Positions 10,244 to 59,114 of a DNA stretch of 64,000 nucleotides are shown here, in pieces (position 1 is the stretch's first letter; each line of letters begins with the position of its first letter). The DNA comes from Candidatus Nanosyncoccus sp. GTDB taxonomy: Bacteria; Patescibacteriota; Saccharimonadia; Saccharimonadales; Saccharimonadaceae. The position numbers were made by a program, and so were the translations under genes. The stretch is taken from NCBI GenBank assembly GCA_045638045.1, contig JAZUAP010000007.1:5907-69906 (forward strand). The letters are read 5' to 3'. Below the pieces are notes generated by a model. It made no database searches and was not told the DNA's origin. It worked only from the letters and a program-made list of their open reading frames with translations.

Positions 10244-11650
<1,407 letters not shown>

Positions 11651-12803: not shown

Positions 12804-13472
12804 ATGATAAAGTTTACGATAATTACGCTTTTCCGGGAGGCGATTGAACCATATCTTAAGTCTTCAATGATGTGGAAGGCGGTTGATAAGGGACTCGCTG
12901 AATTTGATTTTGTGAATTTGCGTGATTTTGGACTAGGCCCACATAAATCCGTGGATGATACACCTTATGGGGGTGGGGATGGAATGTTGCTCCGATGCGA
13001 GCCAGTTTTTGAAGCGATTGAATCAGTAAAAGCTAAGGATCCATCGGCCAAAGTGATCATTCCTACCCCTGTAGGAAAGATATGGAATCAGGATATGGCG
13101 AGAAAGATGGCGAAAGCTGATTTCCAATCATCCCTACATTATATTATCTTGTGTCCTCACTACGAGGGGTATGATGAGCGGATTTTGTCGATTGTGGATT
13201 ATAAGATTTCACTGGGTAAGTACGTGTTAACAGGGGGTGAATTGCCGGCGCTTATTATTATCGACTCGGTCGTGAGATTGATACCTGGAGTTTTAGGAGG
13301 TGAAAAATCAGCGGAAATTGAATCATTTTCCGATGGTGATAACCTCGAATACCCACAGTATACGCGTCCAGAAGATTTTCGCGGTATGAAGGTGCCTGAG
13401 GTGCTGCTTTCAGGAAATCACGGCGAGATTGCCAAGTGGCGCGAGGAACACTCAAAAAAGGCGGATTATTAG
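12804..13472 (+). CDS. trmD: tRNA (guanine37-N1)-methyltransferase TrmD
   Basis: 222 aa with the typical TrmD pattern: ITLFREAIEPYL, VDDTPYGGGDGM, LTGGELPALIIIDSVVRLIPGVLG. TGgTATAAT (-10 at 12791..12796) lies 7 nt from the ATG. Confidence 0.92.
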   Translation: MIKFTIITLFREAIEPYLKSSMMWKAVDKGLAEFDFVNLRDFGLGPHKSVDDTPYGGGDGMLLRCEPVFEAIESVKAKDPSAKVIIPTPVGKIWNQDMARKMAKADFQSSLHYIILCPHYEGYDERILSIVDYKISLGKYVLTGGELPALIIIDSVVRLIPGVLGGEKSAEIESFSDGDNLEYPQYTRPEDFRGMKVPEVLLSGNHGEIAKWREEHSKKADY

Positions 13473-21222: not shown

Positions 21223-21699
21223 ATGCCACGTAAGACTACTAAATCATTAGTGAGAAAAGTTAATCCAGATCGCAAATATCAATCGATTTTGGTACAACGC
21301 TTGATTAACAAATCGATGCTTAATGGCAAACGCCAAGTAGCAGAGCGTGCAGTATATTCAGCAATTGAAGGTGCTGCCAAGAAACTTGATTCTGAAAATC
21401 CAGTGGAAGTACTTGAAAAAGCCATCGCTAACGTTTCACCAGATTTTGAAGTAAAATCTCGCCGTGTTGGTGGTGCTAACTACCAGATTCCATTTGCAAT
21501 TTCAGGTCACCGACAACTTCACTTTGCGTTTTCATGGCTAGTACAATCAGCACGTGCTCGCAAAGGTATGCCTTATACAAAGCGCCTTGAAGCTGAAATT
21601 GTTGACGCCTACAACGAGACTGGTGCAGCGTTCAAGAAGAAAGAAGATTGTCACCGAATGGCGGAAGCAAACCGCGCATTTGCACACTTTGCACGTTAA
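21223..21699 (+). CDS. rpsG: 30S ribosomal protein S7
   Basis: 158 aa with the typical S7 sequence (MPRK..., VKSRRVGGANYQIP). Confidence 0.97.
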   Translation: MPRKTTKSLVRKVNPDRKYQSILVQRLINKSMLNGKRQVAERAVYSAIEGAAKKLDSENPVEVLEKAIANVSPDFEVKSRRVGGANYQIPFAISGHRQLHFAFSWLVQSARARKGMPYTKRLEAEIVDAYNETGAAFKKKEDCHRMAEANRAFAHFAR

Positions 21700-21814
21700 A
21701 CAACAAAAATGCCTATTCAGGACACGGGTCGCTCGCGCCCGTCGTTACGGGGCTCGCGCCCTAATTCTCGGTCGTGACCTCCGAAATGTCCTGAATAGGT
21801 ATTTTTTGTTGTTT
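21698..21814 (+). terminator. Very long hairpin after rpsG (about 25-bp AT-rich outer stem enclosing the GC-rich repeat element)
   Basis: caacaaaaatgcctattcaggaca (21701..21724) pairs with tgtcctgaataggtattttttgttg (21787..21811) and is followed by TTTT. Confidence 0.7.
21714..21797. repeat. GC-rich palindromic repeat element, copy 1 (intergenic)
   Basis: tattcaggacacgggtcgctcgcgcccgtcgttacggggctcgcgccctaattctcggtcgtgacctccgaaatgtcctgaata. It aligns block by block with the reverse complement of 29737..29838. Confidence 0.8.
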
Positions 21815-21862
21815 TCATACAAAGCATGGTATAATTAGACATAAGAATATTAGGAGGTAAAA

Positions 21863-22867
21863 ATGGTAAAAGTTGCAATTAACGGTTTTGGTAGAATTGG
21901 GCGGAATGCTCTAAAAATCTTATTAGACCGTCATGATGCGCAAGTTGTAGCAATCAATGATATTACTGATGCAAAGACTTTGGCTCATCTTTTAAAGCAT
22001 GATTCAACCTACGGCACATACGATAAAAGAGTTTCGGCTGGAGAAAACTCGTTAATAATCAATACGCGTGAGATTCCAGTTTTTGCTGAAAAGGATCCTT
22101 CAAAGCTACCTTGGAAAAATCTAGGTGTAGACGTAGTGATTGAATCGACTGGTTTCTTTACTAAACCGGAGGATGCTAGAGCTCACATCAAAGCCGGCGC
22201 CAAGAAAGTTGTCATTTCAGCGCCCGCTAAGGGTGAAGGCGCAAAAACCATAGTAATTGGCGTCAACGAAGAGTTTGTGACTAGCGACGATGAAATATTG
22301 TCAAATGCTTCTTGTACAACCAATTGTATTGCGCCTGTGATGAATGTACTCGAAAGTGAATTTGGTATTGAAAAAGCAATGATGACTACCGTACATTCCT
22401 ATACCGGCTCACAAAGAATTCTGGATGCTCCGGCTAAAGATTTACGCGAGACACGTTCGGCGGCTGAAAATATCGTACCAACCTCAACTGGTGCATCAAA
22501 AGCAGCTGCACTCACTATCCCTTCACTTAAAGATAGGTTCAATGGCTTGTCAGTGAGAGTTCCAACTCCAGTTGTATCTTTGTCGGATATTACTGCTGTA
22601 CTTAAGAGAAACACCACGAAAGAAGAACTCGTAAATATATTTAAAAAAGTCGCAAAAGAACCATATTATGAAGGAATCCTTGGCGTGACTGAGGAGGAGC
22701 TCGTATCGTCTGATTTTATTGGAGATCCACATTCATGTATCGTTGATTTGCCATTAATCGATGTGGTGGGCGGTAACATGGTAAAAGTCGTGGCTTGGTA
22801 TGACAATGAGTGGGGTTATTCTAACCGTTTGGTAGAACTAACCGTTGATTTCGGGAAGGAAGCGTAA
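21863..22867 (+). CDS. gap: Glyceraldehyde-3-phosphate dehydrogenase
   Basis: 334 aa. NGFGRIGR and catalytic SCTTNC. TGgTATAAT (21830..21835) plus SD AGGAGG. Confidence 0.95.
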   Translation: MVKVAINGFGRIGRNALKILLDRHDAQVVAINDITDAKTLAHLLKHDSTYGTYDKRVSAGENSLIINTREIPVFAEKDPSKLPWKNLGVDVVIESTGFFTKPEDARAHIKAGAKKVVISAPAKGEGAKTIVIGVNEEFVTSDDEILSNASCTTNCIAPVMNVLESEFGIEKAMMTTVHSYTGSQRILDAPAKDLRETRSAAENIVPTSTGASKAAALTIPSLKDRFNGLSVRVPTPVVSLSDITAVLKRNTTKEELVNIFKKVAKEPYYEGILGVTEEELVSSDFIGDPHSCIVDLPLIDVVGGNMVKVVAWYDNEWGYSNRLVELTVDFGKEA

Positions 22868-23313
22868 TGATATATATTGGCGCAGATTATCGTGGATTCG
22901 AGAAGAAAAACCAACTGATTCAATTTTTGACAGAACATGGTTACGAGGTAAAAGATTTGGGCGCTTTTGAATATAACGAAGGGGATGATTTTAATGACCC
23001 GGCAATTGCGGTTGCAATGAATGTGAGAGAAGACAAAGGGTCATTTGGAGTTTTAATCTGCGATTCGGCGCATGGTATGACTACGCAAGCCAACCGTTTT
23101 AAAGGCGTTCGAGCTGCACATTGTGATGGTGCAGAATCAGCAAAACTAGCACGTGAACACGATGATGCTAATGTGCTTTGTATGTCTGCGCACTTTATGG
23201 ATGAAGCGAAAATGGAAGAGACTCTAACTTCATTTTTAGAGACACAATTTGAAAGTTTGGAACGCCGAGTAAGGCGCATTAATCGTTTAGATGAAAGGGA
23301 AGATTATGATTAG
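22867..23313 (+). CDS. rpiB: Ribose-5-phosphate isomerase B (RpiB/LacAB family)
   Basis: 148 aa. IGADYRGFEKK..., ICDSAHGM. Start overlaps the gap stop (TAATG). Confidence 0.8.
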   Translation: MIYIGADYRGFEKKNQLIQFLTEHGYEVKDLGAFEYNEGDDFNDPAIAVAMNVREDKGSFGVLICDSAHGMTTQANRFKGVRAAHCDGAESAKLAREHDDANVLCMSAHFMDEAKMEETLTSFLETQFESLERRVRRINRLDEREDYD

Positions 23314-23962
23314 AGCTGTTTCAATCGTACCGACAATTTTGACGGATAACAAACAAGATTATCGGGCCTTGATTGAGAAGATTAATGTGTTCACAAGGCG
23401 AGTGCAAATTGATGTGACGGATGGGATTTTTGCACCGACGCAAACTTTGGATGTTACTAATATATGGTGGCCCAAAAACTGGCAAGCTGATTTACATCTC
23501 ATGGCCGTAAAACCATCAGAACATATAGACACAATTCTGAAATTGAATCCGTCGCTTTGTATATTACATGCTGAGGCACAAGAAGATTTATTGCCTAGCT
23601 TTGAAATATTAAAAAATGCTGGCATTAAAACTGGTGTTGCATTATTACAATCAACTTTTCCAGGTAATGTAAAGCATTATATCGAAGCAGCTGATCATGC
23701 TTTGATTTTTGCTAGCAAAATTGGAACCCAAGGTGCGCCGGCAGATATGATGCAAATGGAAAAAATCCCGTTAATCCGTAATACGAAACCTGAAATTGAA
23801 ATAGGTTGGGATGGTGGCGCAAACATGACAAATGTTCGCGCATTAGCGCATGCTGATCTTGATGTTATCAATGTTGGTTCAGCAATTGCAAAATCCGATA
23901 ACCCAGCCCAAACGTTCGATGAACTAGTCGCAGAAATTGATAAAAACGGAGTGGTGTTATAA
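23306..23962 (+). CDS. Divergent ribulose-phosphate 3-epimerase-family TIM-barrel protein
   Basis: Pattern IVPTIL, VQIDVTDGIFAP, ADLHLMAV, LHAEA resembles Rpe (PSIL, H.DVMDG.FVPN, DVHLMV, VH.E). ATG 23306 (SD AAGGGA) is preferred to the track start at 23291. Confidence 0.5.
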   Translation: MIRAVSIVPTILTDNKQDYRALIEKINVFTRRVQIDVTDGIFAPTQTLDVTNIWWPKNWQADLHLMAVKPSEHIDTILKLNPSLCILHAEAQEDLLPSFEILKNAGIKTGVALLQSTFPGNVKHYIEAADHALIFASKIGTQGAPADMMQMEKIPLIRNTKPEIEIGWDGGANMTNVRALAHADLDVINVGSAIAKSDNPAQTFDELVAEIDKNGVVL

Positions 23963-24924
23963 TGGCACGTATAGTATCACTTGGTTCAGCTTTACAAGAT
24001 ATCTATTTGATCGACCATGATGATTTGGTACCTACTTCAATTGGTGGAGAGGCAATTTTTGGGAAAGTATTAGTCGGCTCCAAAGTGGATATCGATCGCA
24101 TTTCTTATGAAGTTGGTGGCGGTGGAGTTAATTCTGCTATTACTTTTGCTCGTCATGGACATGAAGCCGTTTTTATGGGAAATGTCTCGCGGGATCCGGC
24201 TGGAGCAGCAATCATTCGTACTTTGGATCGTGAAGGCGTAGATAGTAGCTATGTAAATTTTTTGGAAAGGAAAACGACTGGAACTTCAATAGTACTACTC
24301 GATGCTAAATCAGGAGAAAGAACGATTCTAACTTGCCGAGGAGCTTCTGAACAGTTCGGAAATTTTGATGAGAAAAGCTTAGAAATGATTCAGCCGGACT
24401 GGCTATACGTAACAACACTTCGGGGTGATATGGATACTTTGGCGCGATTTTTTAAATATGCAAAAAACTTAGGTGCCAAAATCATGTTTAATCCAGGCGT
24501 GAAGGAGCTCGAAAACGGTAAAGAGCTAGTGGCGCTTTTGAAATATGTGGATATATTAAATGTAAATAAATCCGAAGCGTCGAAAATTGTGCCTGGCGTA
24601 GTTTTAACGGAACTTTTGTATCATTTGAGCAATTACGCTCCAATCACTATTATTACAGACGGAGCGATGGGCGGAATCGCTGGAAACGGCGAAGAAGTTT
24701 ATCGATTTGGAATTTATGAAGATGTCAAAATGAAAGATGCTACAGGTGCTGGTGATGCATTTGGCTCAGGTTTTTTGGCTGCGCTTTCAGCTGGTAAATC
24801 ATTTAGAAGTGCTTTGATTTTTGCTTCGGCCAATTCAACAGCTGTCGTTAGCAAAATTGGTGCTAATCGTGGCATTTTAACTAGTCGTGACAAACAACAT
24901 CCGATGCCAATACAAAAAATTTAA
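23962..24924 (+). CDS. PfkB-family carbohydrate kinase (ribokinase-like)
   Basis: 320 aa. GGGGVNSA and DATGAGDAF motifs. Start overlaps the preceding stop (TAATG). Confidence 0.8.
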   Translation: MARIVSLGSALQDIYLIDHDDLVPTSIGGEAIFGKVLVGSKVDIDRISYEVGGGGVNSAITFARHGHEAVFMGNVSRDPAGAAIIRTLDREGVDSSYVNFLERKTTGTSIVLLDAKSGERTILTCRGASEQFGNFDEKSLEMIQPDWLYVTTLRGDMDTLARFFKYAKNLGAKIMFNPGVKELENGKELVALLKYVDILNVNKSEASKIVPGVVLTELLYHLSNYAPITIITDGAMGGIAGNGEEVYRFGIYEDVKMKDATGAGDAFGSGFLAALSAGKSFRSALIFASANSTAVVSKIGANRGILTSRDKQHPMPIQKI

Positions 24925-24933
24925 GGAGGTTAT

Positions 24934-25662
24934 ATGTTAAAAGAAGAAGAAGAATTACTAAAGAGACTATCTATTGCTGATCTTGAGCGAGCTAATGCTT
25001 ATGCAAAAGATTTAGGACACGGACTTCAAACCATCCGTTCGTTTCCACAAGGTGTAACAATTTTTGGTTCAGCGAGGCTTGCTCAGGATTCTAAATATTG
25101 TAAAATGGCTTTTGATCTTGGACATAAACTTGCTGAAAATGGACACGCCGTAATCACGGGTGGTGGACCCGGTATTATGGAAGCGGCATCACATGGGGCA
25201 TATGAAATCGGTGGCCGAGTAATTGGCTTCAATATTACCCTTGCACATGAGCAATTTCCGAATCCATATTTAACTGACTGTGTTACTTTTGAATACTTCT
25301 TTGCAAGGAAAGTATCGCTTGCGATGGGCGCAAAAGTGTTTGTGTTTTTCCCGGGTGGATTCGGAACGATGGATGAGTTGTCTGAGATTTTATGCTTGAT
25401 GCAAGAAAAGAAAATGCCAAAAATGCCAGTGTTTTTGATTGGCGAGGATTATTGGCTTGGTTTTGACAAAATGATTGGCAAAATGATTGCCTTAAAACTA
25501 ATTAATGCTAAGGATACTGGCATCTTTAGAATTACCGACGATATCAATGAAGTGGTGAAAGCAGCTAACAAGATTGGGCATCCAAAGGTTTCTGAAAACT
25601 TCTATGATGGCTTTAGGGAAGCTAGTACAATTGCAAGAGAATCTAAGACAAATAAAATTTAA
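24934..25662 (+). CDS. LOG-family (TIGR00730-type) nucleotide phosphoribohydrolase
   Basis: 242 aa. GGGPGIMEA and PGGFGTMDEL motifs. Confidence 0.8.
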   Translation: MLKEEEELLKRLSIADLERANAYAKDLGHGLQTIRSFPQGVTIFGSARLAQDSKYCKMAFDLGHKLAENGHAVITGGGPGIMEAASHGAYEIGGRVIGFNITLAHEQFPNPYLTDCVTFEYFFARKVSLAMGAKVFVFFPGGFGTMDELSEILCLMQEKKMPKMPVFLIGEDYWLGFDKMIGKMIALKLINAKDTGIFRITDDINEVVKAANKIGHPKVSENFYDGFREASTIARESKTNKI

Positions 25663-26939
25663 AACGGGTGGGTGAGGCCGAGAGTTGAATTGGTGTCGGC
25701 GATACGGATGAGTTCGTTGTATTTGGCGATGCGGTCAGTACGGGAGAGGGAACCGGTCTTGATTTGGCCGGTGCCGAGACCAACAGCAAGATGCGCAATA
25801 GAAACGTCTTCTGTTTCGCCGGAGCGGTGCGACATTACAGTTTTGAAGCCGGATTTTTTGGCGAGTAATACCGTATCAATGGTTTCAGATAATGTGCCGA
25901 TTTGGTTTGGCTTTATTAAAATAGCGTTACCACATTTTTCGGTAATACCGCGTTCTAATAATTTAACATTTGTGACAAATAAATCATCGCCGACTAATTG
26001 AACACGGGAACCGAGTTTGTCGGTTAGAATCTTCCAGTTATCCCAATCGCTTTCTGATAATCCATCCTCGATTGAAACTACTGGATAATTATCGACAATC
26101 CAAGTATACCAATTAATCATATCTTCAGCAGATTTCCAGTCACCGTTGGTTTTGAGTTCATAATGATCTTTATTATAAAATTCCGATGCGGCAATATCCA
26201 TGGCAAGTGAAATATCATCGCCGAATTTGTATCCGGCTTTTTCAACGGCATATTTAATACAGTCGAGTGGTTCGTTGTTGCCATCACGCATTTTGGGAGC
26301 ATATCCGCCTTCGTCACCGACGGTAGTAGGATAATCACGTTCTTTCAAAACATCTTTAAGAGCATGAAAAACCTCAGCACCCATTTGTACAGCGGTAGCA
26401 ATATTGCCAGCAGAACGCGGAATAATCATATATTCTTGAAAATCAGTAGACCAGGAGGCATGAGCACCACCATTCATAACATTCATCATTGGCATTGGAA
26501 TAGACATCTCATTCTCAGTGCCTGCAAGTTTTGCGACATATTGATAAAACGGAGTTCTATTAGCCTTAGCGTTGGCTTTGGCGTTAGCTAATGAAACAGC
26601 CAAAATTGCATTGGCTCCGACATTGGTTTTATTCTCAGTGCCATCCAGATCGAGCATCATTTGATCAACCGTGCGAGGGTCGGCAGTGTTTCCAACTAAC
26701 ACGTCGCGAATTTTGGAGTTTACATTCCAAACTGCTTTTAAAACACTTTTACCGTTATATACTTTTGGATCACCATCACGTAGCTCCAAGGCTTCGCCGG
26801 AACCAGTTGAGGCGCCAGAAGGAACAATGGCACGACCAAACCCACCATTTTCCAAATAAACTTCAGCTTCGACTGTGGGGTTACCACGCGAATCTAAAAC
26901 TTGTCTTGCTTTTATTTCTTTAATCACACTATTTTCCAT
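25659..26939 (-). CDS. eno: Enolase
   Basis: DSRGNPTVE, SHRSGETED and other enolase motifs. TGtTATAAT (26954..26946 on minus) abuts the track start ATG 26945, so the in-frame ATG 26939 (MENSVIKEIKARQ), 6 nt past the -10, is preferred. The stop codon overlaps the LOG gene stop (convergent). Confidence 0.93.
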   Translation of the reverse strand: MENSVIKEIKARQVLDSRGNPTVEAEVYLENGGFGRAIVPSGASTGSGEALELRDGDPKVYNGKSVLKAVWNVNSKIRDVLVGNTADPRTVDQMMLDLDGTENKTNVGANAILAVSLANAKANAKANRTPFYQYVAKLAGTENEMSIPMPMMNVMNGGAHASWSTDFQEYMIIPRSAGNIATAVQMGAEVFHALKDVLKERDYPTTVGDEGGYAPKMRDGNNEPLDCIKYAVEKAGYKFGDDISLAMDIAASEFYNKDHYELKTNGDWKSAEDMINWYTWIVDNYPVVSIEDGLSESDWDNWKILTDKLGSRVQLVGDDLFVTNVKLLERGITEKCGNAILIKPNQIGTLSETIDTVLLAKKSGFKTVMSHRSGETEDVSIAHLAVGLGTGQIKTGSLSRTDRIAKYNELIRIADTNSTLGLTHPF

Positions 26940-27046
26940 AAGCATATTATAACACGGAAAAATATTTCAGTTTTAATAATTATAGTTCTGTTTTTTAAAT
27001 CTATGTTATAATAAGCATAAGAATTATTAACAATAAGGAGTTATTT

Positions 27047-28564
27047 ATGAATGAAAATCCGGGGGAGATGCCAAATCCCTTGAATCCAAATAACGATCCG
27101 CTCGATGCCAATCCGGCAGAATCTCAGCCACTCGAAGAAATTGTGGAGGAGGTACAAGCGGTGAATGTTACTCCAGTAGAGCAACCAATTGATGTTGCTC
27201 CAACAGGTGATCCGGTAGTTGATCCGGTGGTTAACCCAGTGGTTGATCCAACAATTGACCCAACTAATCGCCCGATGGAGAAAGCACCAGTAGCTGAACC
27301 AGTTCAGCCTAAAAAGAAAAAGACTGGCCTAATCGTTGCTGGTATTGTTGCGATTTTAGTAGCAATCGGCTGTGGTGTTGCTGCCGCAATAATGTTTACG
27401 ATGAATAGTGGCGATCCAGTAGTCAAAGCAGTTGAGAAAGTATTTGGTGGTAATATGCCAGCTTATGCATCAATCGATGGAGATATTACCGTCACACCAA
27501 ATGACAATTCGTTTGTTTCTAATTTGAAAATATCGTTGAAGTCAGATACATCGACTACATCAATGCTTAATTCAACTAACGTTAAAGTTACAGCAAATCT
27601 TGCTAATGATGATAGCGTTAGTTTTGATGTTGATGAGATGTATGGTTCGAATGGTGATTTGTATTTGAAGCTGAGTAACGTAGCTGATGCGTTGAAAGCA
27701 TTAGCTGGAAGCATTTCCAATAATACAAATAGCCTAAATAACATGGCCTGTATCGAAGATGAAAATGGCGAAACAGTTTGTGACAGTGAATATGTTGAAA
27801 CAATCGACTGTGAAACTGCAGAAGATTGCGCGTCGCTTGATACGACAAACAGTGTCAATTCGTTGAATGATTCTAGTTTTCTTGGTGCGCTAGGTGAGTT
27901 CGGTAGTGTAATTGAACTAATTGACGGCACGTGGCTAAAGATTTCTGTAGATGAATTGAATAACTTGACTGGTAGCGGTATGATTGATGCTGGCAGTGGT
28001 GGTTCAAGTTGTATTATTGGCGTAATGGCAAATTACAAAGATTATAGTAATAGTATGGTTGAAATATATAACAAAAACCCATTTATTTCATCTACTACTG
28101 ACGGAGTAACTCTTGCAAGTAAGAGTGGTCAACCAGTACGTAAGATTGTTCTCGACGACAAGAACTACAGTAGTTTCGCAAACTCAATGAAAAATTCAAC
28201 TTTTGTGAAAGATTTGCAAGCTTGTGGTAATGAAGGAGCAGACGTTCAAATAAACGATGCGGTTTCACTTAGCAATATACCTACTATTTACGCTGAAGTG
28301 GATAATGATTACAACTTTTCACGTCTCACATTTGATATGCCAATCAAAAACACTTCTTCTTGCGTTTGCGATGAAGAAGTCGATTGTACCTGCGATGATG
28401 AAATTGTGGCTAACATGAATATTGACTTAAGCTTTTCTTATCCAAGCACTATCAACGTAGCTGAACCAACTCAATACACTGATTTATCTACTTTGATGCA
28501 ACAGATGCTCCGCAATATGTATTCGACATCTGGTGGCAGCTCTAGTGTGATTATCAACCAGTAA
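27047..28564 (+). CDS. Hypothetical membrane-anchored protein
   Basis: 505 aa. Pro-rich N-terminus with DPVVDPVVNPVVDPTIDPT repeats. TM helix GLIVAGIVAILVAIGCGVAAAIMF. Large Ser/Asn/Asp-rich ectodomain with an acidic Cys cluster (SSCVCDEEVDCTCDDE). TGtTATAAT plus SD AAGGAG. Confidence 0.6.
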   Translation: MNENPGEMPNPLNPNNDPLDANPAESQPLEEIVEEVQAVNVTPVEQPIDVAPTGDPVVDPVVNPVVDPTIDPTNRPMEKAPVAEPVQPKKKKTGLIVAGIVAILVAIGCGVAAAIMFTMNSGDPVVKAVEKVFGGNMPAYASIDGDITVTPNDNSFVSNLKISLKSDTSTTSMLNSTNVKVTANLANDDSVSFDVDEMYGSNGDLYLKLSNVADALKALAGSISNNTNSLNNMACIEDENGETVCDSEYVETIDCETAEDCASLDTTNSVNSLNDSSFLGALGEFGSVIELIDGTWLKISVDELNNLTGSGMIDAGSGGSSCIIGVMANYKDYSNSMVEIYNKNPFISSTTDGVTLASKSGQPVRKIVLDDKNYSSFANSMKNSTFVKDLQACGNEGADVQINDAVSLSNIPTIYAEVDNDYNFSRLTFDMPIKNTSSCVCDEEVDCTCDDEIVANMNIDLSFSYPSTINVAEPTQYTDLSTLMQQMLRNMYSTSGGSSSVIINQ

Positions 28565-28572
28565 ACAGTGGT

Positions 28573-28601
28573 TTGACTAATTAGCGTAAGTATGATATAA
28601 T
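28573..28601 (+). promoter_or_regulatory. Promoter giving a leaderless uvrC mRNA
   Basis: TTGACT (28573..28578), 17 nt spacer, TGaTATAAT (TATAAT 28596..28601). The ATG at 28608 is only 6 nt downstream and there is no SD. Confidence 0.7.
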
Positions 28602-28607
28602 TGTAAT

Positions 28608-29954
28608 ATGGACGAGCGTTTGAAAGAGAAACTTAGTAAACTCCCGGCCCAGCCGGGGGTTTATTTTCATAAAAACGCTGATGGTGAGGTAATATATGTT
28701 GGAAAAGCAGCGGTTTTAAAAAATCGCGTTAGGCAATATTTCCAGAAAAATAAAAAGGACGTTAAGACTGAGGCTTTGGTGCGTGAAATACATGATACTG
28801 ACTGGATTGTGGTAGATACGGAAATGGATGCACTGTTTTTAGAATCGGAAATGATTAAACGTTATAAGCCGAAATGGAATATACTTCTTCGCGACGACAA
28901 AACAGTTTCTTTTGTCAGAATTACGATGAAGGATGAAGTCCCATATGTGTCGTTTACACGAACACCGATGGATGATAAGGCAACTTATATTGGGCCATTT
29001 TATGGAAAAGTGACGGTGGAACGAGCTTTGAGGAATTTGAGAAGAATTTTTCCATATTATACACGGCCTTATTCAGGGCGAAAAACTCTTGATACTGATC
29101 TTGGGCTGACACCAGGTATTGAAATTGATAAATGTACACCAGCAGATTATAAAAGAAATCTTAGAAAACTGATTCGTTACCTTGAGGGTGACAAAGAAAA
29201 GCTACTAAAAGACCTCGAAAAATCGATGAAAAAGGAAGCTCGGGCGGGGAATTACGAACTCGCAGCCGAGGCGCGTGATCAATTGTTTGGCCTTAGAGAA
29301 TTGAAGCGGAAGATTGTGTTTTCAGATAAGGAGTTTTTAGATATTTCGTCGGACAAAGCATTGGCTGAGTTGCAGGAGTTGTTAGGGCTTGAAAAGCCAC
29401 CACGCCGAATTGAGGGGTATGATATTTCGCATCAGTCGGGTGAGAATACAGTTGGAAGTATGGTGGTATTTATTAATGGCGCATCTGCGCGGGATGAATA
29501 TAGAAAGTTCAAAATCCGCACTTCTAAAAATGATGATTTAAAAAGCATGAAAGAAGTGATTACTAGAAGATTAAAACACCCCGAATGGGACTTTCCGGAT
29601 TTGATTATACTTGATGGCGGGATCACACAAGTGAATGCAATTTTGCCGTTAGTAGAACCTTATAGTATACCGGTGATTGGACGCGACAAGTCGGGTGATC
29701 ATTCGAAAAGTGCAAAAGTATGCTTGGTAATTCCAGAATATCCCGGACTGAGGGGATTTCGGAGCGCGGCAGCGCGAGAATTAGCGCGCTCGCCCCGTGG
29801 CGACGGGCGCGAGCGGCGCGACCCGAAGCCGGGATATTTGGAATTACCGTCTAGCTCTCACATTTCACGATTGATTGCCCGAATTGACGAGGAAGCGCAT
29901 CGATTTGCAATAACTTATCATTCTTTACTGAAACGAAAAAGTATGCTAAAATAA
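28608..29954 (+). CDS. uvrC: Excinuclease ABC subunit C, short form (no C-terminal HhH domain) carrying a 34-codon GC-rich insertion
   Basis: 448 aa. GIY-YIG domain (PGVYFHKNADGEVIYVGKA), UVR domain (ELAAEARDQL), endonuclease domain (IEGYDISH, ILDGG, DEEAHRFAI). The ORF ends about 15 aa after DEEAHRFAI. Confidence 0.9.
   Translation: MDERLKEKLSKLPAQPGVYFHKNADGEVIYVGKAAVLKNRVRQYFQKNKKDVKTEALVREIHDTDWIVVDTEMDALFLESEMIKRYKPKWNILLRDDKTVSFVRITMKDEVPYVSFTRTPMDDKATYIGPFYGKVTVERALRNLRRIFPYYTRPYSGRKTLDTDLGLTPGIEIDKCTPADYKRNLRKLIRYLEGDKEKLLKDLEKSMKKEARAGNYELAAEARDQLFGLRELKRKIVFSDKEFLDISSDKALAELQELLGLEKPPRRIEGYDISHQSGENTVGSMVVFINGASARDEYRKFKIRTSKNDDLKSMKEVITRRLKHPEWDFPDLIILDGGITQVNAILPLVEPYSIPVIGRDKSGDHSKSAKVCLVIPEYPGLRGFRSAAARELARSPRGDGRERRDPKPGYLELPSSSHISRLIARIDEEAHRFAITYHSLLKRKSMLK
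29737..29838. repeat. GC-rich palindromic repeat element, copy 2 (in frame inside uvrC)
   Basis: 102 nt (34 codons) bounded by aatatcccgg / ccgggatatt. Core gcgcgagaattagcgcgctcgccccgtggcgacgggcgcgagcggcgcgacccg. Translated as GLRGFRSAAARELARSPRGDGRERRDPKPG. Confidence 0.8.
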
Positions 29955-33069: not shown

Positions 33070-36045
33070 CTAACGCGCGACACAACGTACGGCGAAGCCC
33101 ACATCACGGGTGGCTCCCCAACCTAGGCCGCCTGTTTGATCTACGTCGAAATAAAGCATGACGGCATGGTCCGCTGTATCCGTATCTAAAGAGGAGGTCC
33201 AATATTCTCCTAACGATCCTACATATTGGCCAAACGATTCGCCACCCCATCGTCCGCCATAGGTAAAATATACCGGAGATTTTTGAATATTGCCACTTGT
33301 AGTAGCAGTATATCTTCCGTTGATTAAGTTATAGTATGATTTTGAACCGTCACGCGTCGGTAAGCGCCATCCAGCCGGGCAAATTGATTGGTTAACATCT
33401 TGGGTACCAGCAGTGTAACTACTGGAGTCGTTCATAGCTACAGCCGCGGTCCAGTTGTAGTAATTGCCTAAATGATAATGACCGCTAGTGCAGGTCTGCG
33501 TCATATTGTCAAGTGTACCGTTCCAACTAGTATTAAGGTTTCCGTTCCAACATTTATTGCCGGGGTCGTAAGATTCTGGAGTGGTAGTTGACCATATCCA
33601 TGTTTTATTACTCGTAGCGTAAGTAGAACGATCTGGAGTCCAGTTGGCAGGTATGTCCGTATTGGCGGGGGTGAGGGTGGTAGAAGTACTGAGATCTAGA
33701 TCCAGATTCTGAGTCATCCAGATGTTACCGTCTGCTTGCTTAGCTACCAAATATTCTTTGCCATCACGCTTATCTACTACTATAATCTGTTCGCCAACAG
33801 TAGTTAATTCATCTTTCCATTGGTTTACGTCTTGCATATATTTCGGAGGATCCGGGTTGACTATCCACGGGTCCGTGGCGGTACCAGTACCACTCACGGC
33901 AGCAGTTCCAGAGGTGAGGGAAATGGACGGGCGCACCCCATACGTGTAGACGACGATGCCGTAGCCGCCGCTGAGGTCGCCGTTCGGGCCCAGGTAGAAG
34001 CCGTTCGCATAACCGCCCGAGAGGCGGGAGTAAGGGGACAGCAACCAAAAGTAAGTACCGGAATACAGGAAACTGTTAGCATGGTAAGGAGTAGTGGATG
34101 CGCTGTAGCCTGAACCAGCAAAGGCAGCTTCATCAGCAGTGAGAAGAGCGGCTGGATATTTAAGCTGATTGGATACTCCAGTACTTCCTGCTACATAACG
34201 GTAGAGGTCTACAGTGCTACGATCTATTTGACTATATTTATTGCCACAGGTGAGGGATGGGGCTTGGGCGGCATTTGCGTTTCGTGGATCTGCGCCAAAG
34301 TAGTATTCTTGTTGGCCTGAGGTGCCGTAGGTGGAGGCAATGGTGGTAGATTCGCTAAGTGGGGTGGTCCAACTTCTGGATGTATTCATAGTACGGTCAT
34401 TACAATATCCTGCACTAGCTTCTAGTTTAGAAGTGTAGCTAGTCATATTGTTAGCATACCAAGTGTCTTCAATGTATGTTTTAATAGTTGAGCGAGTATT
34501 ATTAGCTCCTGGGTTAGAGTTAGAACCAAAGATTTGAGCAATAGTACCAGACTGGGATGTATTAGTAGCATAGGTGGAGTTATGGGTGTAGCCTACACGG
34601 ACGATTTGGCGGTAGTCAGAGGAAGTACCGTTGAAGGCTGAAGTAGTGACTTGGGCGGCAGTGGTTGCGTTGGCGCAAGTACTGCCAGTCCATTTGCCTT
34701 GGTAGATCATCTTTACTCCACCAGAGCCGGTAGTACGAATAATACGCCAGCAGGTATCTGAAGTATCTTTTCCATTGCCAGTAGTGTCCAATAGAACAGT
34801 ATTAGGCCAGGCGGCATTATCACCGTTGCTACCATATGAACCAGTGGTATTATCTAGAATGCCACGGTAGTAGTAGATTTTGCTGGTGTTTGCGACATCT
34901 GATGCAGTGCCAAAGACTGAGCTATTGTATTCATAGACGCCGGAGTTACTGGTAGTAATGGCAGCGCGAAGCTGAGCTAAAGTTTGGGTGCCTTTGCTCA
35001 TACTAGCTACCGTATTGTAAAGATTAATCCCTGCTACTTCCCACATCGCATAGATGGTAAGTGGGTTACTGGATTGCGTTTGATCTAGAGTCCAAGTAAG
35101 ATTAGTTCCACCACCATCAGGATTATAGGTAGTACCAGAGCATGTGCCTCCATCAGTTGTTTGAGTGGTACACCAACCTTTAAAGTTAAAGCCATCTCTT
35201 ACTGGAACTGTACTACTTAAATTCACTATTTCATCAAAGGTAGGTTGATTTACTACATTTGTAGGCATATTAGTAACAGTGTCTTGTGTATTCTGGTTAT
35301 AGGTAATGGAATAATAAATTGGATTTGCTACGGCAGTGATAATAAAGGTATTAGCATATTTACCTGGAGATGTAGAATTATTAATTCTGGTACCTAGTGC
35401 TATATTGTATTCGTTTGCTGTAGCATTTGCTGAAGTAGTTTTATCAATAATGAATTGGTTAGTAGCACTACTTGGTCCTGGGAAGTAAAGGTTAGATGAG
35501 GTGTTATCTATCACCACATCATTATTGGTATCATAATACTTACTTGGCCTGAATCCCCAAGTATTATTTAAGTTGTTAGATGAAGCATATGTAAGATCAT
35601 TATAGTTAGTTCCTGATACTCCTGCAGAAATAGTATGGGATGGGATAGTTTTAGAACTATCAGAAGCATTAACTAAAGCATTTTCTCCTTCAGTGCTGGC
35701 TTTAATGCCGAGTGTATAGCCTGTACCATTATTAGTAGAGACGCTGATATTATTAGCAGTAGTGTCCGATGAAGCAAAGGTTCCTGCACTATCAAGGGAT
35801 GAGATGTTGAGGCTTAGTTTGTCTGTTACACTGAGAGTAAGGGTGGAAGAAGTAGCATAGGCATCACTTCCTTTCAAAATGAAAAAGCCATCACCTATAG
35901 TAACCAATCCTAGTATTATCATTAATGTAATCGAATACATTACTCTTTTCTTGATTTTAGCATCAAGAATACTAAATACTCTAACCTCTGACAAAAACGA
36001 GTATTTATTTGTAGATTGATTCTTTAAACTATTATTACCTTCCAC
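33070..36045 (-). CDS. Secreted 991-aa surface protein: family N-terminal module + Listeria-Bacteroides-type repeat + 'YYYRG/CWRIIR' module + 'WLLSP...GVRPSISL' module + C-terminal FISUMP domain
   Basis: GTG start with a TGtTATAAT promoter (36083..36075 on minus). Signal-peptide-like KIKKRVMYSITLMIILGLVTIG...SDAYA. FISUMP landmarks at about 33073..33790: VDKRDGKEYLVAKQADGNIWMTQNL, YYNWTAAV, ICPAGWRLPT, YWTSSL, GFAVRCVAR. The exact start codon is uncertain. Confidence 0.85.
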   Translation of the reverse strand: MEGNNSLKNQSTNKYSFLSEVRVFSILDAKIKKRVMYSITLMIILGLVTIGDGFFILKGSDAYATSSTLTLSVTDKLSLNISSLDSAGTFASSDTTANNISVSTNNGTGYTLGIKASTEGENALVNASDSSKTIPSHTISAGVSGTNYNDLTYASSNNLNNTWGFRPSKYYDTNNDVVIDNTSSNLYFPGPSSATNQFIIDKTTSANATANEYNIALGTRINNSTSPGKYANTFIITAVANPIYYSITYNQNTQDTVTNMPTNVVNQPTFDEIVNLSSTVPVRDGFNFKGWCTTQTTDGGTCSGTTYNPDGGGTNLTWTLDQTQSSNPLTIYAMWEVAGINLYNTVASMSKGTQTLAQLRAAITTSNSGVYEYNSSVFGTASDVANTSKIYYYRGILDNTTGSYGSNGDNAAWPNTVLLDTTGNGKDTSDTCWRIIRTTGSGGVKMIYQGKWTGSTCANATTAAQVTTSAFNGTSSDYRQIVRVGYTHNSTYATNTSQSGTIAQIFGSNSNPGANNTRSTIKTYIEDTWYANNMTSYTSKLEASAGYCNDRTMNTSRSWTTPLSESTTIASTYGTSGQQEYYFGADPRNANAAQAPSLTCGNKYSQIDRSTVDLYRYVAGSTGVSNQLKYPAALLTADEAAFAGSGYSASTTPYHANSFLYSGTYFWLLSPYSRLSGGYANGFYLGPNGDLSGGYGIVVYTYGVRPSISLTSGTAAVSGTGTATDPWIVNPDPPKYMQDVNQWKDELTTVGEQIIVVDKRDGKEYLVAKQADGNIWMTQNLDLDLSTSTTLTPANTDIPANWTPDRSTYATSNKTWIWSTTTPESYDPGNKCWNGNLNTSWNGTLDNMTQTCTSGHYHLGNYYNWTAAVAMNDSSSYTAGTQDVNQSICPAGWRLPTRDGSKSYYNLINGRYTATTSGNIQKSPVYFTYGGRWGGESFGQYVGSLGEYWTSSLDTDTADHAVMLYFDVDQTGGLGWGATRDVGFAVRCVAR

Positions 36046-45656: not shown

Positions 45657-47135
45657 ATGTTGTTAGAAGATTATAGAAATGAAAGACTTAGAAAACTAGA
45701 GGAAATCCGAGCGAGAGGAATTGATGCTTATCCTTCAAAATCGGAGCGAAACACTAAAATTTCAGATGTGGTGACGCATTTTGACGAGAAAAAAGGTCAG
45801 GAAGTCTGTGTGGCTGGTCGGATTGTAGCAATTCGCTCATTTGGAAAGTTGGTATTTATTAAGTTACGCGATTATACGAGTGAAGTGCAAATATTCATGA
45901 AAGCAGTACCTGAGGAAACTCCAGCAGGAATGTTTGGCGCTAAAGATATTAAACTGCTTGATGTAGGTGATTTTATTGAAGCTAAAGGTATTGTTGATAA
46001 GTCACAAACTGGCGAGATTTCGGTGTTTTCTGATTATGTGAGGCTTTTGACTAAATCTCTAAGGCCAATGCCTGAAAAGTTCACCAATAAGGAAGAACGC
46101 TATCGTCGTCGTTATGTTGATATGAATGTAAATCCAGAAGTGCGTGAGAGACTAGTACGCCGTTCGAAATTCTGGCAGGCGACACGTGATTTTATGAACA
46201 AACATGGCTTTATTGAGATTAATATCCCGGTACTTGAACACACAACTGGTGGTGCGGATGCAAATCCATTTGTGACACACATGGACGCTCTGGATGAGGA
46301 TTTTTATCTTCGTATTTCGCACGAGCTTCCTTTGAAGAGATTACTTGGTGGTGGCTTTGAAAAAGTTTATGACATCGGACCGAGATTTAGAAATGAAGGT
46401 GTTGATGATGAGCATTTGCCGGAACATATTGCATTTGAAGCTTATTCCGCCTATGAAGATTACGAAGATGGAATGAAATTCTATGAAGAAATGATTAAAT
46501 ATGTGGCAAAGGAAACTTGGGGTACTTTGAAATTTAACGTAGGCGGATTTGAGATTGATTTAGACTGTGAGTGGCCACGTTATAAATATGCGGATCTTTT
46601 GAAAGAGAAATATGATGTTGATGTATTCAACCCAGACAGGGAACAATTAATCCGAGTATTACTGGAAAACTGGGACGCCAAAGATTTGAAGCGAGATGAA
46701 TTTGTGAAAAAACTCGAAAACACCACTACGCCACATTTGATTGATGATGTATGGAAGCTGATTCGCAAGACTTCGGCTGGTCCGTACTGGGTGATTGAAG
46801 AGCCTTTGAGCTTGTCACCACTGGCTAAAAAATCTTCAGATAATCCACTGGTAACGGAAAGATTTCATCCAGTGATTGCAGGTACTGAAATGGGGAATGG
46901 TTTTTCGGAATTAAATGACCCGCTTGATCAGTTAGAGCGCTTCGAAGAACAACAAGCTGCACGTGATGCAGGTGACGAAGAAGCTCAAATGATGGATAAA
47001 GATTTTGTAGAAATGCTAGAATATGGTATGCCGCCTGCTTGTGGTTGGGGCAATTCGGAACGAAACTTTTGGCTACTCGAAGGAGTACCAGGTAGGGAAG
47101 CAGTACCGTTTCCAACTATGCGAAAGATTGACTAG
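45657..47135 (+). CDS. lysS: Lysine--tRNA ligase (class II)
   Basis: OB anticodon-binding domain plus class II motifs (FRNEG, GNGFSELNDP, GMPPACGWG). TGtTATAAT (45645..45650) lies 6 nt from ATG 45657. The track start at 45612 lies upstream of the promoter. Confidence 0.92.
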   Translation: MLLEDYRNERLRKLEEIRARGIDAYPSKSERNTKISDVVTHFDEKKGQEVCVAGRIVAIRSFGKLVFIKLRDYTSEVQIFMKAVPEETPAGMFGAKDIKLLDVGDFIEAKGIVDKSQTGEISVFSDYVRLLTKSLRPMPEKFTNKEERYRRRYVDMNVNPEVRERLVRRSKFWQATRDFMNKHGFIEINIPVLEHTTGGADANPFVTHMDALDEDFYLRISHELPLKRLLGGGFEKVYDIGPRFRNEGVDDEHLPEHIAFEAYSAYEDYEDGMKFYEEMIKYVAKETWGTLKFNVGGFEIDLDCEWPRYKYADLLKEKYDVDVFNPDREQLIRVLLENWDAKDLKRDEFVKKLENTTTPHLIDDVWKLIRKTSAGPYWVIEEPLSLSPLAKKSSDNPLVTERFHPVIAGTEMGNGFSELNDPLDQLERFEEQQAARDAGDEEAQMMDKDFVEMLEYGMPPACGWGNSERNFWLLEGVPGREAVPFPTMRKID

Positions 47136-57146: not shown

Positions 57147-59114
57147 ATGGCTAAGTTTAAATTAGTGTCAAAGTATAAACCGACTGGGGATCAACCTACT
57201 GCGATTCGTCAATTAACGGACGGGGTGGTTTCTGGTGCGCATGAACAAACTTTGCTGGGTGTAACTGGTTCGGGTAAGACTTTCACGATGGCTAATATTA
57301 TTGAAAATGTACAGAAACCGACTTTGATTTTGGCACACAATAAAACTTTGGCCGCACAACTTTATTCTGAATTTCGGGAATTTTTCCCAAATAATGAAGT
57401 GCATTATTTTGTGTCATATTTTGATTATTATCAACCGGAGGCTTATATCGCATCAACGGATACCTACATTGAAAAAGATTCGGCCATTAACGATGAAATC
57501 GACCGATTGAGGCACGGTACAACGGAGGCATTGCTGAGCCGGCGAGATGTAATTGTGGTGGCGTCGGTTTCCTGTATTTATGGTATTGGTTCGCCGGAGC
57601 ATTATCTTGAAATGTCATTTGAAATCGGAAAAAGTAGTAATATCAGCCAGCTAGATTTCATTAAGAAGTTGGTATCGATTCAGTATCATCGAAATGATCT
57701 CGCATTTGAGCGAGGGAATTTCCGGGTGATGGGAGACACGATTGATCTTTATCCAGCGAATGGGGAATACGCGTATCGTTTTGAATTTGGATTTGATACT
57801 TTGGAAGAGATTAAGGTGGTTGATCCTTTGACTTTTGAGGTGCACGAAAAGCCAGAGTCTGTGCATATTTTCCCAAATACGCATTATGCGACGCCGGAGG
57901 ATTCTTTGGAGAATGCGCTTTTATCGATTCGAAAAGAATATGAGGAAAGATTAAAATATTTCGAAAAACACGAAAAATACTTGGAGGCACAAAGGCTATC
58001 ACAACGTACCAAGTACGATCTTGAAATGCTCAAAGAAACTGGTTTTGTAAAGGGAATTGAGAATTATTCGAGGCACCTAGAAGGGCGAAAACCGGGGGAA
58101 CCACCCTATACATTGCTTGATTTCTTCCCGGAGGACTTTTTATTGATCGTGGATGAATCACATATGACTTTGCCACAGGTACGTGGAATGTATAACGGTG
58201 ATCACGCGCGGAAAATGTCTTTAGTGGAACATGGTTTTAGATTGCCATCGGCACTTGATAATAGGCCTTTAACTTATGGCGAGTTTCAAAAGCATATCAA
58301 TCAAGCGATTTATGTATCAGCGACACCTGGAGAGTATGAATTATCGGTGTCTGGTAAGCCAGCAGAGCAGGTGATTCGCCCAACGGGACTACTTGATCCT
58401 GAAATTGAAGTGCGCTCATCGGATGGACAGATTGATGATTTGATGGAGGAAATTGATACTCGGATAGCTAAAGGGCAGAGAACTTTGATTACGACTTTAA
58501 CTAAGCGGATGGCAGAGGATTTGACTGATCATTTGAAAGAACGAGGGGTGAAGACTGCTTATATTCATTCGGATATTGATACTTTGGAAAGAGGTGATAT
58601 TTTGCGGGATCTTCGCGAGGGTGTTTATGATGTATTAGTTGGAATTAATCTGCTACGTGAAGGACTTGATTTGCCGGAGGTTTCCTTGGTTGCGATACTG
58701 GATGCGGATAAAGAAGGGTTCCTGCGCTCTGAGTCAGCTTTGATTCAGACGATTGGTAGAGCGGCACGCCATGTTGACGGAAAAGTAATCATGTATGCGA
58801 ATTATATTACTGAAAGCATGGAAAAGGCGATTTCAGAGACCAACCGTAGGCGGGAGATTCAAAAAGAATACAATGATAAAAACGGTATCACTCCACAGTC
58901 TATTTCAAAGGAAGTATCGATGGGGCTTCGGGCGATTATCCCGGAGAAGGAAAAGGTTGATAAACTTGATATTAAGCGGATTCCGAAGGATGAATTACCT
59001 GGATTGATTAAGTCACTCACTGGAGAAATGCAACTAGCGGCGGCGAATTTGGAGTTTGAAAAGGCTGCAGCGCTTAGAGATGAGATTGGGAAGATTAAAG
59101 AATATATTGGCTAA
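57147..59114 (+). CDS. uvrB: Excinuclease ABC subunit B
   Basis: 655 aa. [24 protein letters not shown]-terminal UVR motif. TGtTATAAT (57134..57139) lies 7 nt from the ATG. Confidence 0.95.

Follow-up and report, generated by a model that had tools for sequence, protein, structure and literature searches.

A GC-rich palindromic insert in uvrC of a Nanosyncoccus-like bacterium belongs to a dispersed, probably mobile family of hairpin elements in Saccharibacteria

We analyzed a 64,000-nucleotide stretch of DNA (hereinafter the window) from Candidatus Nanosyncoccus sp. (GenBank assembly GCA_045638045.1, contig JAZUAP010000007.1), in which the uvrC gene contains a GC-rich palindromic segment that leaves the reading frame intact. 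We consider it likely that this insert belongs to a dispersed family of mobile DNA elements that are GC-rich, form hairpins and are non-autonomous; they would be selfish DNA akin to the Rickettsia palindromic elements (RPEs), translated through by their host genes and inhabiting a clade of Saccharibacteria (Nanosyncoccus-like, mostly from the ruminant gut). The insert is a member of a sequence family restricted to this clade; at the uvrC site it is polymorphic for presence and absence, is lacking from distant orthologues and, where present, persists in frame and free of stop codons. Across the family, we further observed that copies have recently multiplied within a genome and inverted in place, that cores have been deleted with palindromic footprints left behind, and that the arms come from host sequence.

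The insert in uvrC and the copy downstream of rpsG

The host gene uvrC (28608..29954, + strand), taken from the list of open reading frames (ORFs) and matching GIY-YIG, UVR and UvrC_RNaseH in Pfam, codes for a protein of 448 aa (416 aa without the insert) whose C-terminal end is the RNase H-like endonuclease domain; unlike canonical UvrC it has no HhH domain, a condition shared by all close relatives. The frame is open throughout the GC-rich segment, and the GC content is 69% at 29737-29838 (peak of 0.80 in a 60-nt window) as against 40% in the remainder of uvrC. Together with the presence/absence polymorphism among UvrC orthologues described below, these features bear out an earlier interpretation made from the letters of the window (hereinafter the sequence-only reading), which had proposed an RPE-like or MITE-like (miniature inverted-repeat transposable element) repeat inserted in frame. 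The inverted repeats that it took as the bounds of a GC-rich, in-frame insert of 102 nt, AATATCCCGG and CCGGGATATT, are indeed present, as is the segment itself; however, the palindrome continues outward from them, such that the unit occupies 29726-29848, and the net gain relative to the empty allele of a relative (L001) is 96 nt (32 codons). Nor do they serve as conserved element ends, being mostly locus-specific and host-derived, with only about 8 nt by the core conserved.

The complete unit (29726..29848), delimited by its inverted repeats, its fold and comparison with the closest relative (L002), comprises outer arms, inner arms and a core of the type that we call subfamily A, and is assigned to the - strand, that is, the strand carrying the 24-mer signature of the family (called F). 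Its predicted RNA folds have energies of -79.6 (+ strand) and -71.3 (- strand) kcal/mol, with z-scores of -7.1 and -6.6 relative to shuffles. The outer left arm GGTAATTCCA (29726..29735), which is host-gene sequence specifying the V-I-P codons and is retained in the core-less allele L001, pairs perfectly with the outer right arm TGGAATTACC (29839..29848), which specifies the L-E-L-P codons; a single bulged G at 29736 lies between the outer and inner arms. The inner left arm AATATCCCGG (29737..29746) varies among orthologous copies, yet is always complementary to its inverted-repeat partner, here CCGGGATATT (29829..29838). Within these arms lies the conserved core (29747..29827, - strand; nhmmer E-value 2.4e-21), made up of a central hairpin, a small GCGC-TGCC-GCGC hairpin and the unpaired conserved segments CTAATTCTC and CTCCGAAAT. 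The 24-mer CGCTCGCGCCCGTCGCCACGGGGC, the signature common to all subfamilies, lies at 29792..29815 (- strand).

The predicted UvrC peptide spanning the insert includes RGFRSAAARELARSPRGDGRERRDPK. Alignment to the endonuclease domain of T. maritima UvrC (2NRR) puts the insert between residues 113 and 125, in the turn leading into the last helix, on which the DE.HRFA motif lies. An AlphaFold model of UvrC, weak overall (pLDDT 52), places residues 378-407 between two strands with a pLDDT below 50. In the uvrC mRNA, as in those of other coding copies, a perfect duplex of at least 20 bp is to be expected (fold near -80 kcal/mol), which would have the length of an RNase III substrate and might form an obstacle to the ribosome.

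A second, intergenic copy (21698..21814, + strand) lies between the rpsG stop codon and the start of gap, with terminator-like A-tract/T-tract outer arms and a core of subfamily B (21720..21798, + strand; 24-mer at 21730-21753; nhmmer E-value 3.9e-23). As the sequence-only reading had recognized, this hairpin is related to the uvrC insert and opposite in orientation: the two are 78% identical, with long identical blocks and the same 24-mer, CGCTCGCGCCCRTCGNNAYGGGGC, which has 2 matches in the window and 0 in 100 window shuffles, even with 3 mismatches allowed. The two copies fold with z-scores of -6.6 to -9.0 relative to shuffled controls, and they are the only matches to the element profiles in the window. 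By eye, both have a possible TA on their flanks, a dinucleotide that is common in the AT-rich DNA here. Neither copy has a match in Rfam at the gathering score, nor is there any at E≤5 over 21600-29900. A simple terminator scan is blind to hairpins with a 60-nt loop and has no bearing on the rpsG copy; in empty relatives, this site holds an ordinary terminator hairpin with A-tract/T-tract arms that resemble the outer arms of occupied sites. In the rpsG-gap intergenic region of another relative (L161), we also found two tandem copies of a different, shorter hairpin element (arms ATGCTTCTTT/AAAGAAGCAT, core AAGGACCATAAGTATAGCGCCCTTGAGCGTGTCCGAA) with similar GGAC...GTCC termini; these hairpins may indicate a wider superfamily beyond the carriers of the 24-mer.

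The closest 120 UvrC homologues are 75-88% identical and all come from Saccharibacteria; in them, the site flanked by "LVIP" and "LELP" occurs in four states: empty (416-419 aa), with a short remnant, with about 32 aa of wholly different peptides, or with a longer insert. The differing peptides prove to be one DNA element read in other frames or in the other orientation. Typing of the site in these homologues gave reverse/forward counts of 13/11 for variant A, 15/5 for A2, 11/6 for A3 and 11/8 for B, the remainder being 17 empty or short sites and 24 footprints or decayed remnants; most of the reading frames are open in both orientations. A set of 80 additional metagenomic UvrC loci shows that orthologues with 63-77% UvrC identity carry a short beta-hairpin (e.g., KIIVPGKGIVPL) and nothing homologous to the insert; the sequence-only reading had named a homologous segment of ordinary composition throughout the clade as the observation that would tell against it. 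The segment is therefore not ancestral. Likewise, the GGTAATTCCA/TGGAATTACC palindrome is limited to the element-bearing clade, distant orthologues scoring 4-6, which is background, which makes inverted copying of the "VIP" codons the best interpretation of "LELP". Accordingly, TGGAATTACC would be the inverted copy of the left arm that has replaced an ancestral IVPL, with the left arm as the presumed source.

The 448-aa length, common to many close homologues, might suggest instead an ancestral, lineage-specific UvrC loop of odd composition whose likeness to the rpsG hairpin is coincidental. This has next to no probability: the insert peptides differ entirely, deriving from other frames and orientations of one DNA; distant orthologues lack the segment; and the identical 24-mer recurs in dozens of unrelated genes while being absent from the window shuffles. 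We regard these observations as refuting it. Separately, five homologues (P0096, P0105, P0108, P0115, P0119) have loops of similar length and ordinary composition (e.g., STNSAKMQINGADFQAATPQNSTDVQLL), and one locus (L168) has an unrelated AT-rich insert of 27 aa at the UvrC loop; these may be elements that have decayed by mutation, or the same permissive turn may have received insertions independently.

Size, host genes and range of the family

An exact scan for the 24-mer across 185,579 species, with one genome per species, recovered at least 118 stretches carrying the core, mostly from Saccharibacteria, in answer to the search for further copies that the sequence-only reading had recommended. 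Among the matches listed, about 105 are in Ca. Saccharibacteria/Nanosyncoccus metagenome-assembled genomes (MAGs), which come mostly from the gut of sheep, goat, buffalo, yak and roe-deer and have 3-6 loci per individual genome; the non-Saccharibacteria remainder consists of single hits in high-GC genomes, consistent with chance, and of two short contigs binned as Firmicutes. The latter, a 2.4 kb contig of an Acutalibacteraceae MAG (L020) and a 5 kb contig of a Faecalibacterium MAG (L066), bear typical copies with arms and are most likely misbinned Saccharibacteria contigs, not instances of cross-phylum spread. An origin in candidate hosts (Actinobacteria) was considered and rejected, Streptomyces, Nocardioides and Microbacterium having only single, chance-like matches among those listed; a phage carrier was rejected as well, the scan of viral contigs giving only two GC-rich chance matches. 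None of the 24-mer matches listed from the 185,579 species genomes is from Rickettsiales, in a scan that detects only this family's own core.

The family comprises subfamilies A, B, C/D and E along with private ones, which have the 24-mer hairpin in common and differ in their other parts; the core is about 80 nt and the whole unit about 100-130 nt. In 97 of the 118 listed copies with enough flank (82%), the element lies within an ORF that it leaves open, whereas the same criteria hold for 70% of randomly chosen positions; among the remaining 21 are intergenic copies, several of which begin 0-7 nt past a stop codon, and copies located at the very N-terminal end of an ORF. The frame is open in about 99 of 100 genic copies, and only an aberrant 158-nt copy (L009) might split a gene. 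Splicing or ribosomal bypass of the insert was rejected on account of these open frames. The hosts are core housekeeping genes of at least 33 families. Pfam confirms UvrC and names IleRS (12 copies across species), ArgRS, AspRS, PheRS-beta, DNA Pol I (PolA), PriA, LigA, TopA, YchF, Der, LepA, MnmA, Dus, GatA, GatB, FemAB, a class-V aminotransferase and an M1 peptidase, while Obg, UvrB and a TrmD-like protein are named by sequence motifs alone. The translated inserts are predicted loops rich in Arg, Ala, Pro and Gly. Counted against the host genes, 65 copies have the element antisense to the 24-mer strand and 32 have it sense. In 18 of 23 pairs of copies from one contig (L008-L125) the orientation is shared (18:5, p=0.01), which mostly tracks gene direction.

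Several sites that are filled elsewhere are empty in the window. These include the Obg loop LEHEETPRT (11321..11347, - strand), which is filled by different subfamilies in five other genomes; the UvrB loop FEIGKSSNI (57618..57644, + strand), filled in L059; a loop in the putative TrmD-like gene, so named from its HYIILCPHYEGYDER motif (13113..13136, + strand), filled in L011 and L033; and two further sites at 45903-45932 and 3119-3133. The window has other GC-rich patches, none matching the element profiles: a 991-aa ORF with no Pfam match (33070-36045, - strand), an ORF of 964 aa that has the Listeria-Bacteroides repeat and Fibrobacter major domains (47396-50290, - strand), and 4254-4446 within a histidine kinase ORF (4214-5815).

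Paired structure, host-derived arms and inversion in place

Folding and covariation analysis, which the sequence-only reading had envisaged for the time when more copies were found, was performed on a structural alignment of 13 orthologous UvrC-site copies and gave a three-hairpin structure within a long stem. Paired cells make up 93.5% of the alignment, against 77% in shuffles (0 of 500 reach the observed value), and sliding the partners by 1-3 columns drops the pairing to 50% or less. Compensatory double changes are present in 27 of the 44 pairs, including 11 of the 13 pairs of helix 2 (the inner arms); the loops GTCGCCAC and TGCC and the junctions CTAATTCTC/CTCATCCTC and CTCCGAAAT are conserved. 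In the internal helices there are 47 double changes and 0 one-sided changes of the G-U type, and the arm pairs over the 118 listed copies comprise 1903 Watson-Crick as against 83 G-U pairs. Such covariation without wobble, together with the occurrence of both orientations at one site, argues against RNA selection and for a DNA-level process or constraint. As for the arms in particular, RNA-level selection was rejected: their pairs are 95% Watson-Crick, and no leaning of the G-U pairs toward the mRNA strand is seen (73 vs 83, p=0.47). Over the 118 listed copies, the strand complementary to the 24-mer folds better by 7.9 kcal/mol on average (p=1e-34), whatever the orientation of the host gene, which may hint that one specific single strand is the form that is biologically handled.

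The conserved terminus amounts to only about 8 nt by the core (tTTCgGGG...CCCCgAAa), and beyond it lies a 15-30 nt inverted repeat that differs at each locus. The duplex energy of arms from the same locus is -33.0 kcal/mol versus -11.6 kcal/mol when arms are swapped between loci; for the distal 22 nt the values are -21.7 and -6.2 kcal/mol, with 97% of the own-locus values below the swapped 5th percentile, and distal arm identity between loci is 29%. For example, a private subfamily is present in genome CAZOPB in five copies, whose cores are 90-100% identical and whose arms are unrelated; two of these copies (L021:6946 and L102:7743) are identical across 80 nt and have unrelated distal arms. 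Hence, the arms are not carried by the element, and the identical cores are direct evidence of recent copying within a genome.

That the arms come from the host emerges from Obg, where the downstream arm encodes the conserved (L/F)(I/L)AD in each lineage's own codons (CTAATCGCTGAC in L112, TTTTTGGCTGAT in L085 and CTAATTGCTGAC in L029), and the upstream arm is the reverse complement of the downstream arm, replacing ancestral residues; in L029, the upstream arm converts VYK to VSK. Relatives of an insertion upstream of radA have no palindrome at the site, a comparison that is only suggestive, the nearest being at 87-89% protein identity. In six occupied/empty pairs inspected by eye (Obg L112, L085 and L029, UvrB L059, L122 and L011), the arm matching the ancestral residues is, with respect to the 24-mer strand, at the 5' side and the inverted copy at the 3' side in 6/6 assignable cases; the ancestral-type arm is also gene-downstream in 5/6. 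This suggests a polarity in arm copying, in a sample too small to separate an element-strand from a gene-direction reading.

Inversion is seen most directly in L002 (88% protein identity), which has the same uvrC copy flipped whole: 114 of 123 positions are identical when it is compared flipped (93%), as against 85 of 131 unflipped. Since the variable inner arms are the same and the flanking gene is 83-92% identical between L002 and the window, we conclude that there was one insertion followed by inversion in place. Hence, the opposite orientations noticed by the sequence-only reading are real but need not reflect independent insertion, as inversion in place can also give both. Every UvrC-site variant occurs in both orientations, indicating that inversion recurs; conversely, the identical UvrC contigs of L003, L004, L005 and L126 have one orientation throughout, indicating that flipping is not fast. 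Decay is exemplified by L206, which has lost 90 nt symmetrically at the stem base, and by L207, which has lost 75 nt between CCGAGG direct repeats, both keeping the arms; such core losses explain "empty" palindromic alleles, such as L001, as footprints. Further, the central loop of the resident element is the exact place of a nested secondary hairpin in L129 (75 nt) and in L165 (24 nt, with a TTCG tetraloop), the frame being open in both, and L127 and L131 keep an older right arm next to a complete copy. A TGTC direct repeat is visible by eye on both sides of the nested insert in L129.

We propose that what moves would be the core with its self-complementary terminus of about 8 nt, and that copies would persist where they are harmless, namely in surface loops of housekeeping proteins and at hairpin positions just after genes. 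During or after arrival, the nascent strand may snap back on the termini and copy the adjacent host flank in reverse; such intra-strand template switching in replication would yield an inverted duplication, that is, the long locus-specific arms. Later template switching could copy changes between the arms or stem halves, keeping them complementary, and the same inverted repeats would permit occasional inversion. Template switching is able to make perfect hairpins in a single event (PMC10710096), and here it would explain the Watson-Crick-only covariation, the chimeric L029 arm and mirrored indels.

Several observations weigh against this account of a selfish, non-autonomous element that is read through. 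Pfam recovered no transposase or recombinase in the ten ORFs scanned, a part of the window chosen from its larger ORFs of unassigned identity; likewise, 2.1 Mb of related loci yielded no autonomous relative, a search for ORFs bounded by the same termini at a spacing of 300-4000 nt giving 0 candidates. The core loops and junctions are conserved at one orthologous site across lineages down to 75% UvrC identity, which argues that the core is not pure junk and that some recognition or function acts on it. The occupied/empty comparison at radA involves proteins of just 87-89% identity, and the product of a fresh insertion and any target-site duplication are not readable from the pairs compared. Transcription and in-frame translation of the insert are deduced from open frames only. 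Finally, the pre-existing terminator hairpin at rpsG could have provided the arms, and insertion into hairpin loops may thus contribute.

This last point leads to a possible but doubtful explanation, partly compatible with the mobile-element account, by which the element would insert specifically into the middle of a palindrome or hairpin that is already there, be it a terminator, an older footprint or the loop of another copy; the step might involve an enzyme that works on folded single-stranded DNA (ssDNA), and the arms would simply be the target. It would accommodate not only the terminator hairpin of empty rpsG relatives, with the same A-tract/T-tract outer arms, but also the extra hairpins nested in the central loop of L129 and L165, the filling of the same UvrC and Obg loops by different subfamilies, and the older right arm beside the full copy in L127 and L131. 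However, distant UvrC orthologues have no palindrome (scores 4-6) and neither do the radA-upstream relatives; the Obg arms are built on conserved codons of one side only; and perfect palindromes of 10-25 bp would not be expected in at least 33 coding loops. The nested copies, moreover, could reflect survivorship, the loop being the only place where an insertion spares the hairpin.

We find it improbable that the copies are intragenic invertons, in which programmed, enzyme-driven inversion would give each gene two alternative protein loops (phase variation), even though in-place inversion is demonstrated and recurs in every variant, most frames are open both ways, a short motif that each arm conserves by the core might serve as a recombinase site, and invertons of this intragenic class are known (PMC10028968). 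The inserts lie in loops of housekeeping enzymes, for which no need for variation is evident, no invertase was found among the ten window ORFs scanned by Pfam, and many copies are intergenic; flipping also looks rare, the closest flipped pair being already 8-17% diverged in the flanks and the identical UvrC contigs having one orientation. The strong covariation and conserved loops and junctions, the better folding of the strand complementary to the 24-mer in any gene orientation, and the terminator-like position of several intergenic copies 0-7 nt past a stop codon could alternatively be attributed to a functional structured RNA, cis-regulatory or processed into a small RNA, within mRNAs and after genes, with RNA-structure selection causing the covariation. 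We hold this to be very improbable, as both orientations relative to the mRNA occur at the same site, G-U intermediates are essentially lacking and the arm G-U pairs have no sense bias, Rfam gives no match even at E≤5, and most copies lie within coding sequence and are still translatable.

Beyond the preferred reading of a dispersed mobile family, we tentatively raise the prospect, to which we give rather low credence, of a new type of mobile element. Only the structured GC-rich core would move, the terminal inverted repeats would be made afresh at each site from host DNA by snap-back, and the resulting hairpin would maintain itself via template switching, flip and be re-targetable at its loop, possibly with the help of a hairpin-specific ssDNA enzyme. 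If true, this would amount to a DNA hairpin that perpetuates itself and, in bacteria of the Candidate Phyla Radiation (CPR), rewrites the codons next to it in essential genes.

Relationship to known elements and significance

The RPEs (Ogata et al., 2000, 2002, summarized in PMC10969869) are described in that summary as small palindromic repeats found in frame in housekeeping genes and in intergenic regions, with a conserved peptide in each family. As far as this description goes, the present elements resemble them in occupying the reduced genome of an obligate associate, in forming fold-compatible in-frame inserts in many unrelated genes and in having neither coding capacity of their own nor a known transposase; the two features typical of the class, a stable palindromic hairpin and many dispersed in-frame copies in housekeeping genes, are both found here. 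Unlike the conserved peptide reported there for RPEs, several frames and both orientations are read at one UvrC site, and the present elements are much more often located within ORFs (82% of the listed copies, against roughly half for RPEs). Further, the elements described here combine a strong GC richness with an AT-rich genome, carry arms that are locus-specific and host-derived, and flip in place; by their different phylum and by the RPE descriptions, they would stand apart from the RPEs.

Bacterial MITEs (Correia, ERIC, RUP, Coxiella QMITEs) are short, non-autonomous, bounded by inverted repeats and sometimes form intragenic in-frame fusions; their conserved terminal inverted repeats derive from a parent insertion sequence (IS), and they have direct target-site duplications (PMC10969869, PMC5896051). 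Like MITEs, our elements are small, non-coding, multi-copy, non-autonomous, dispersed and polymorphic in presence. In contrast, only about 8 nt of their termini are conserved, the long arms being just 0.29 identical between loci. No direct duplication could be identified, and no parent IS was found in the ten window ORFs scanned or in the 2.1 Mb of related loci. REP/REPIN sequences are extragenic hairpins of 20-40 bp with a GTAG or CGTC tag, linked to RAYT (PMC3733652). The resemblance lies in short, dispersed GC-rich hairpins whose structure is kept by compensatory change, REPs being thought to be handled as folded ssDNA; the present elements differ in being mostly intragenic and in their multi-hairpin core of about 80 nt, and we saw no RAYT, although no genome-wide RAYT search was made. 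With intragenic invertons (PMC10028968) they have in common a segment in a gene that is bounded by inverted repeats and open in each of two orientations; those, however, are single-locus, enzyme-driven and fast, whereas this is a multi-copy mobile family with inversions seen only between diverged lineages.

GC-rich palindromic mini-elements in an AT-rich, reduced genome, protein-coding genes included, are also known from eukaryotic organelles, namely the mobile GC clusters of yeast mitochondria and the byp elements of Magnusiomyces. The byp elements are skipped by the ribosome, unlike those described here, which appear to be read through, with the frame open in about 99 of 100 genic copies. 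In the classical bacterial literature, quasipalindrome correction makes perfect inverted repeats in one step by copying the opposite arm or strand. Template-switch mutation of this kind would account for the host-derived arms and the wobble-free covariation, but it is a mutational process and not an element family; here it would be triggered repeatedly by a mobile hairpin nucleus, a combination that we did not find described. The sequence-only reading knew of no such element in CPR bacteria, and our literature searches agree: among 8.3 million papers searched, we found none pairing Saccharibacteria with miniature inverted-repeat elements or Patescibacteria with palindromic elements, and broader searches likewise returned no description. 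The family thus appears to be previously undescribed: its elements are RPE-like, reside in CPR bacteria, have host-templated arms and invert in place.

In practical terms, the inserts inflate and diversify the protein clusters of core genes, can break gene calls or lead phylogenetic markers astray, and in covariation screens resemble a conserved RNA structure. With at least 33 housekeeping enzymes as hosts and several alternative peptides at one residue position, they offer a natural experiment on how protein loops are tolerated and acquired. The host-derived arms and wobble-free covariation would provide an unusually clear genomic signature of repeated template switching, measurable in uncultured bacteria. 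More generally, if the elements are indeed mobile and selfish, as we consider likely, the RPE phenomenon of selfish DNA lodged in frame in essential genes would extend to the CPR, whose tiny genomes are thought to be poor in mobile DNA and can hardly afford insertions.

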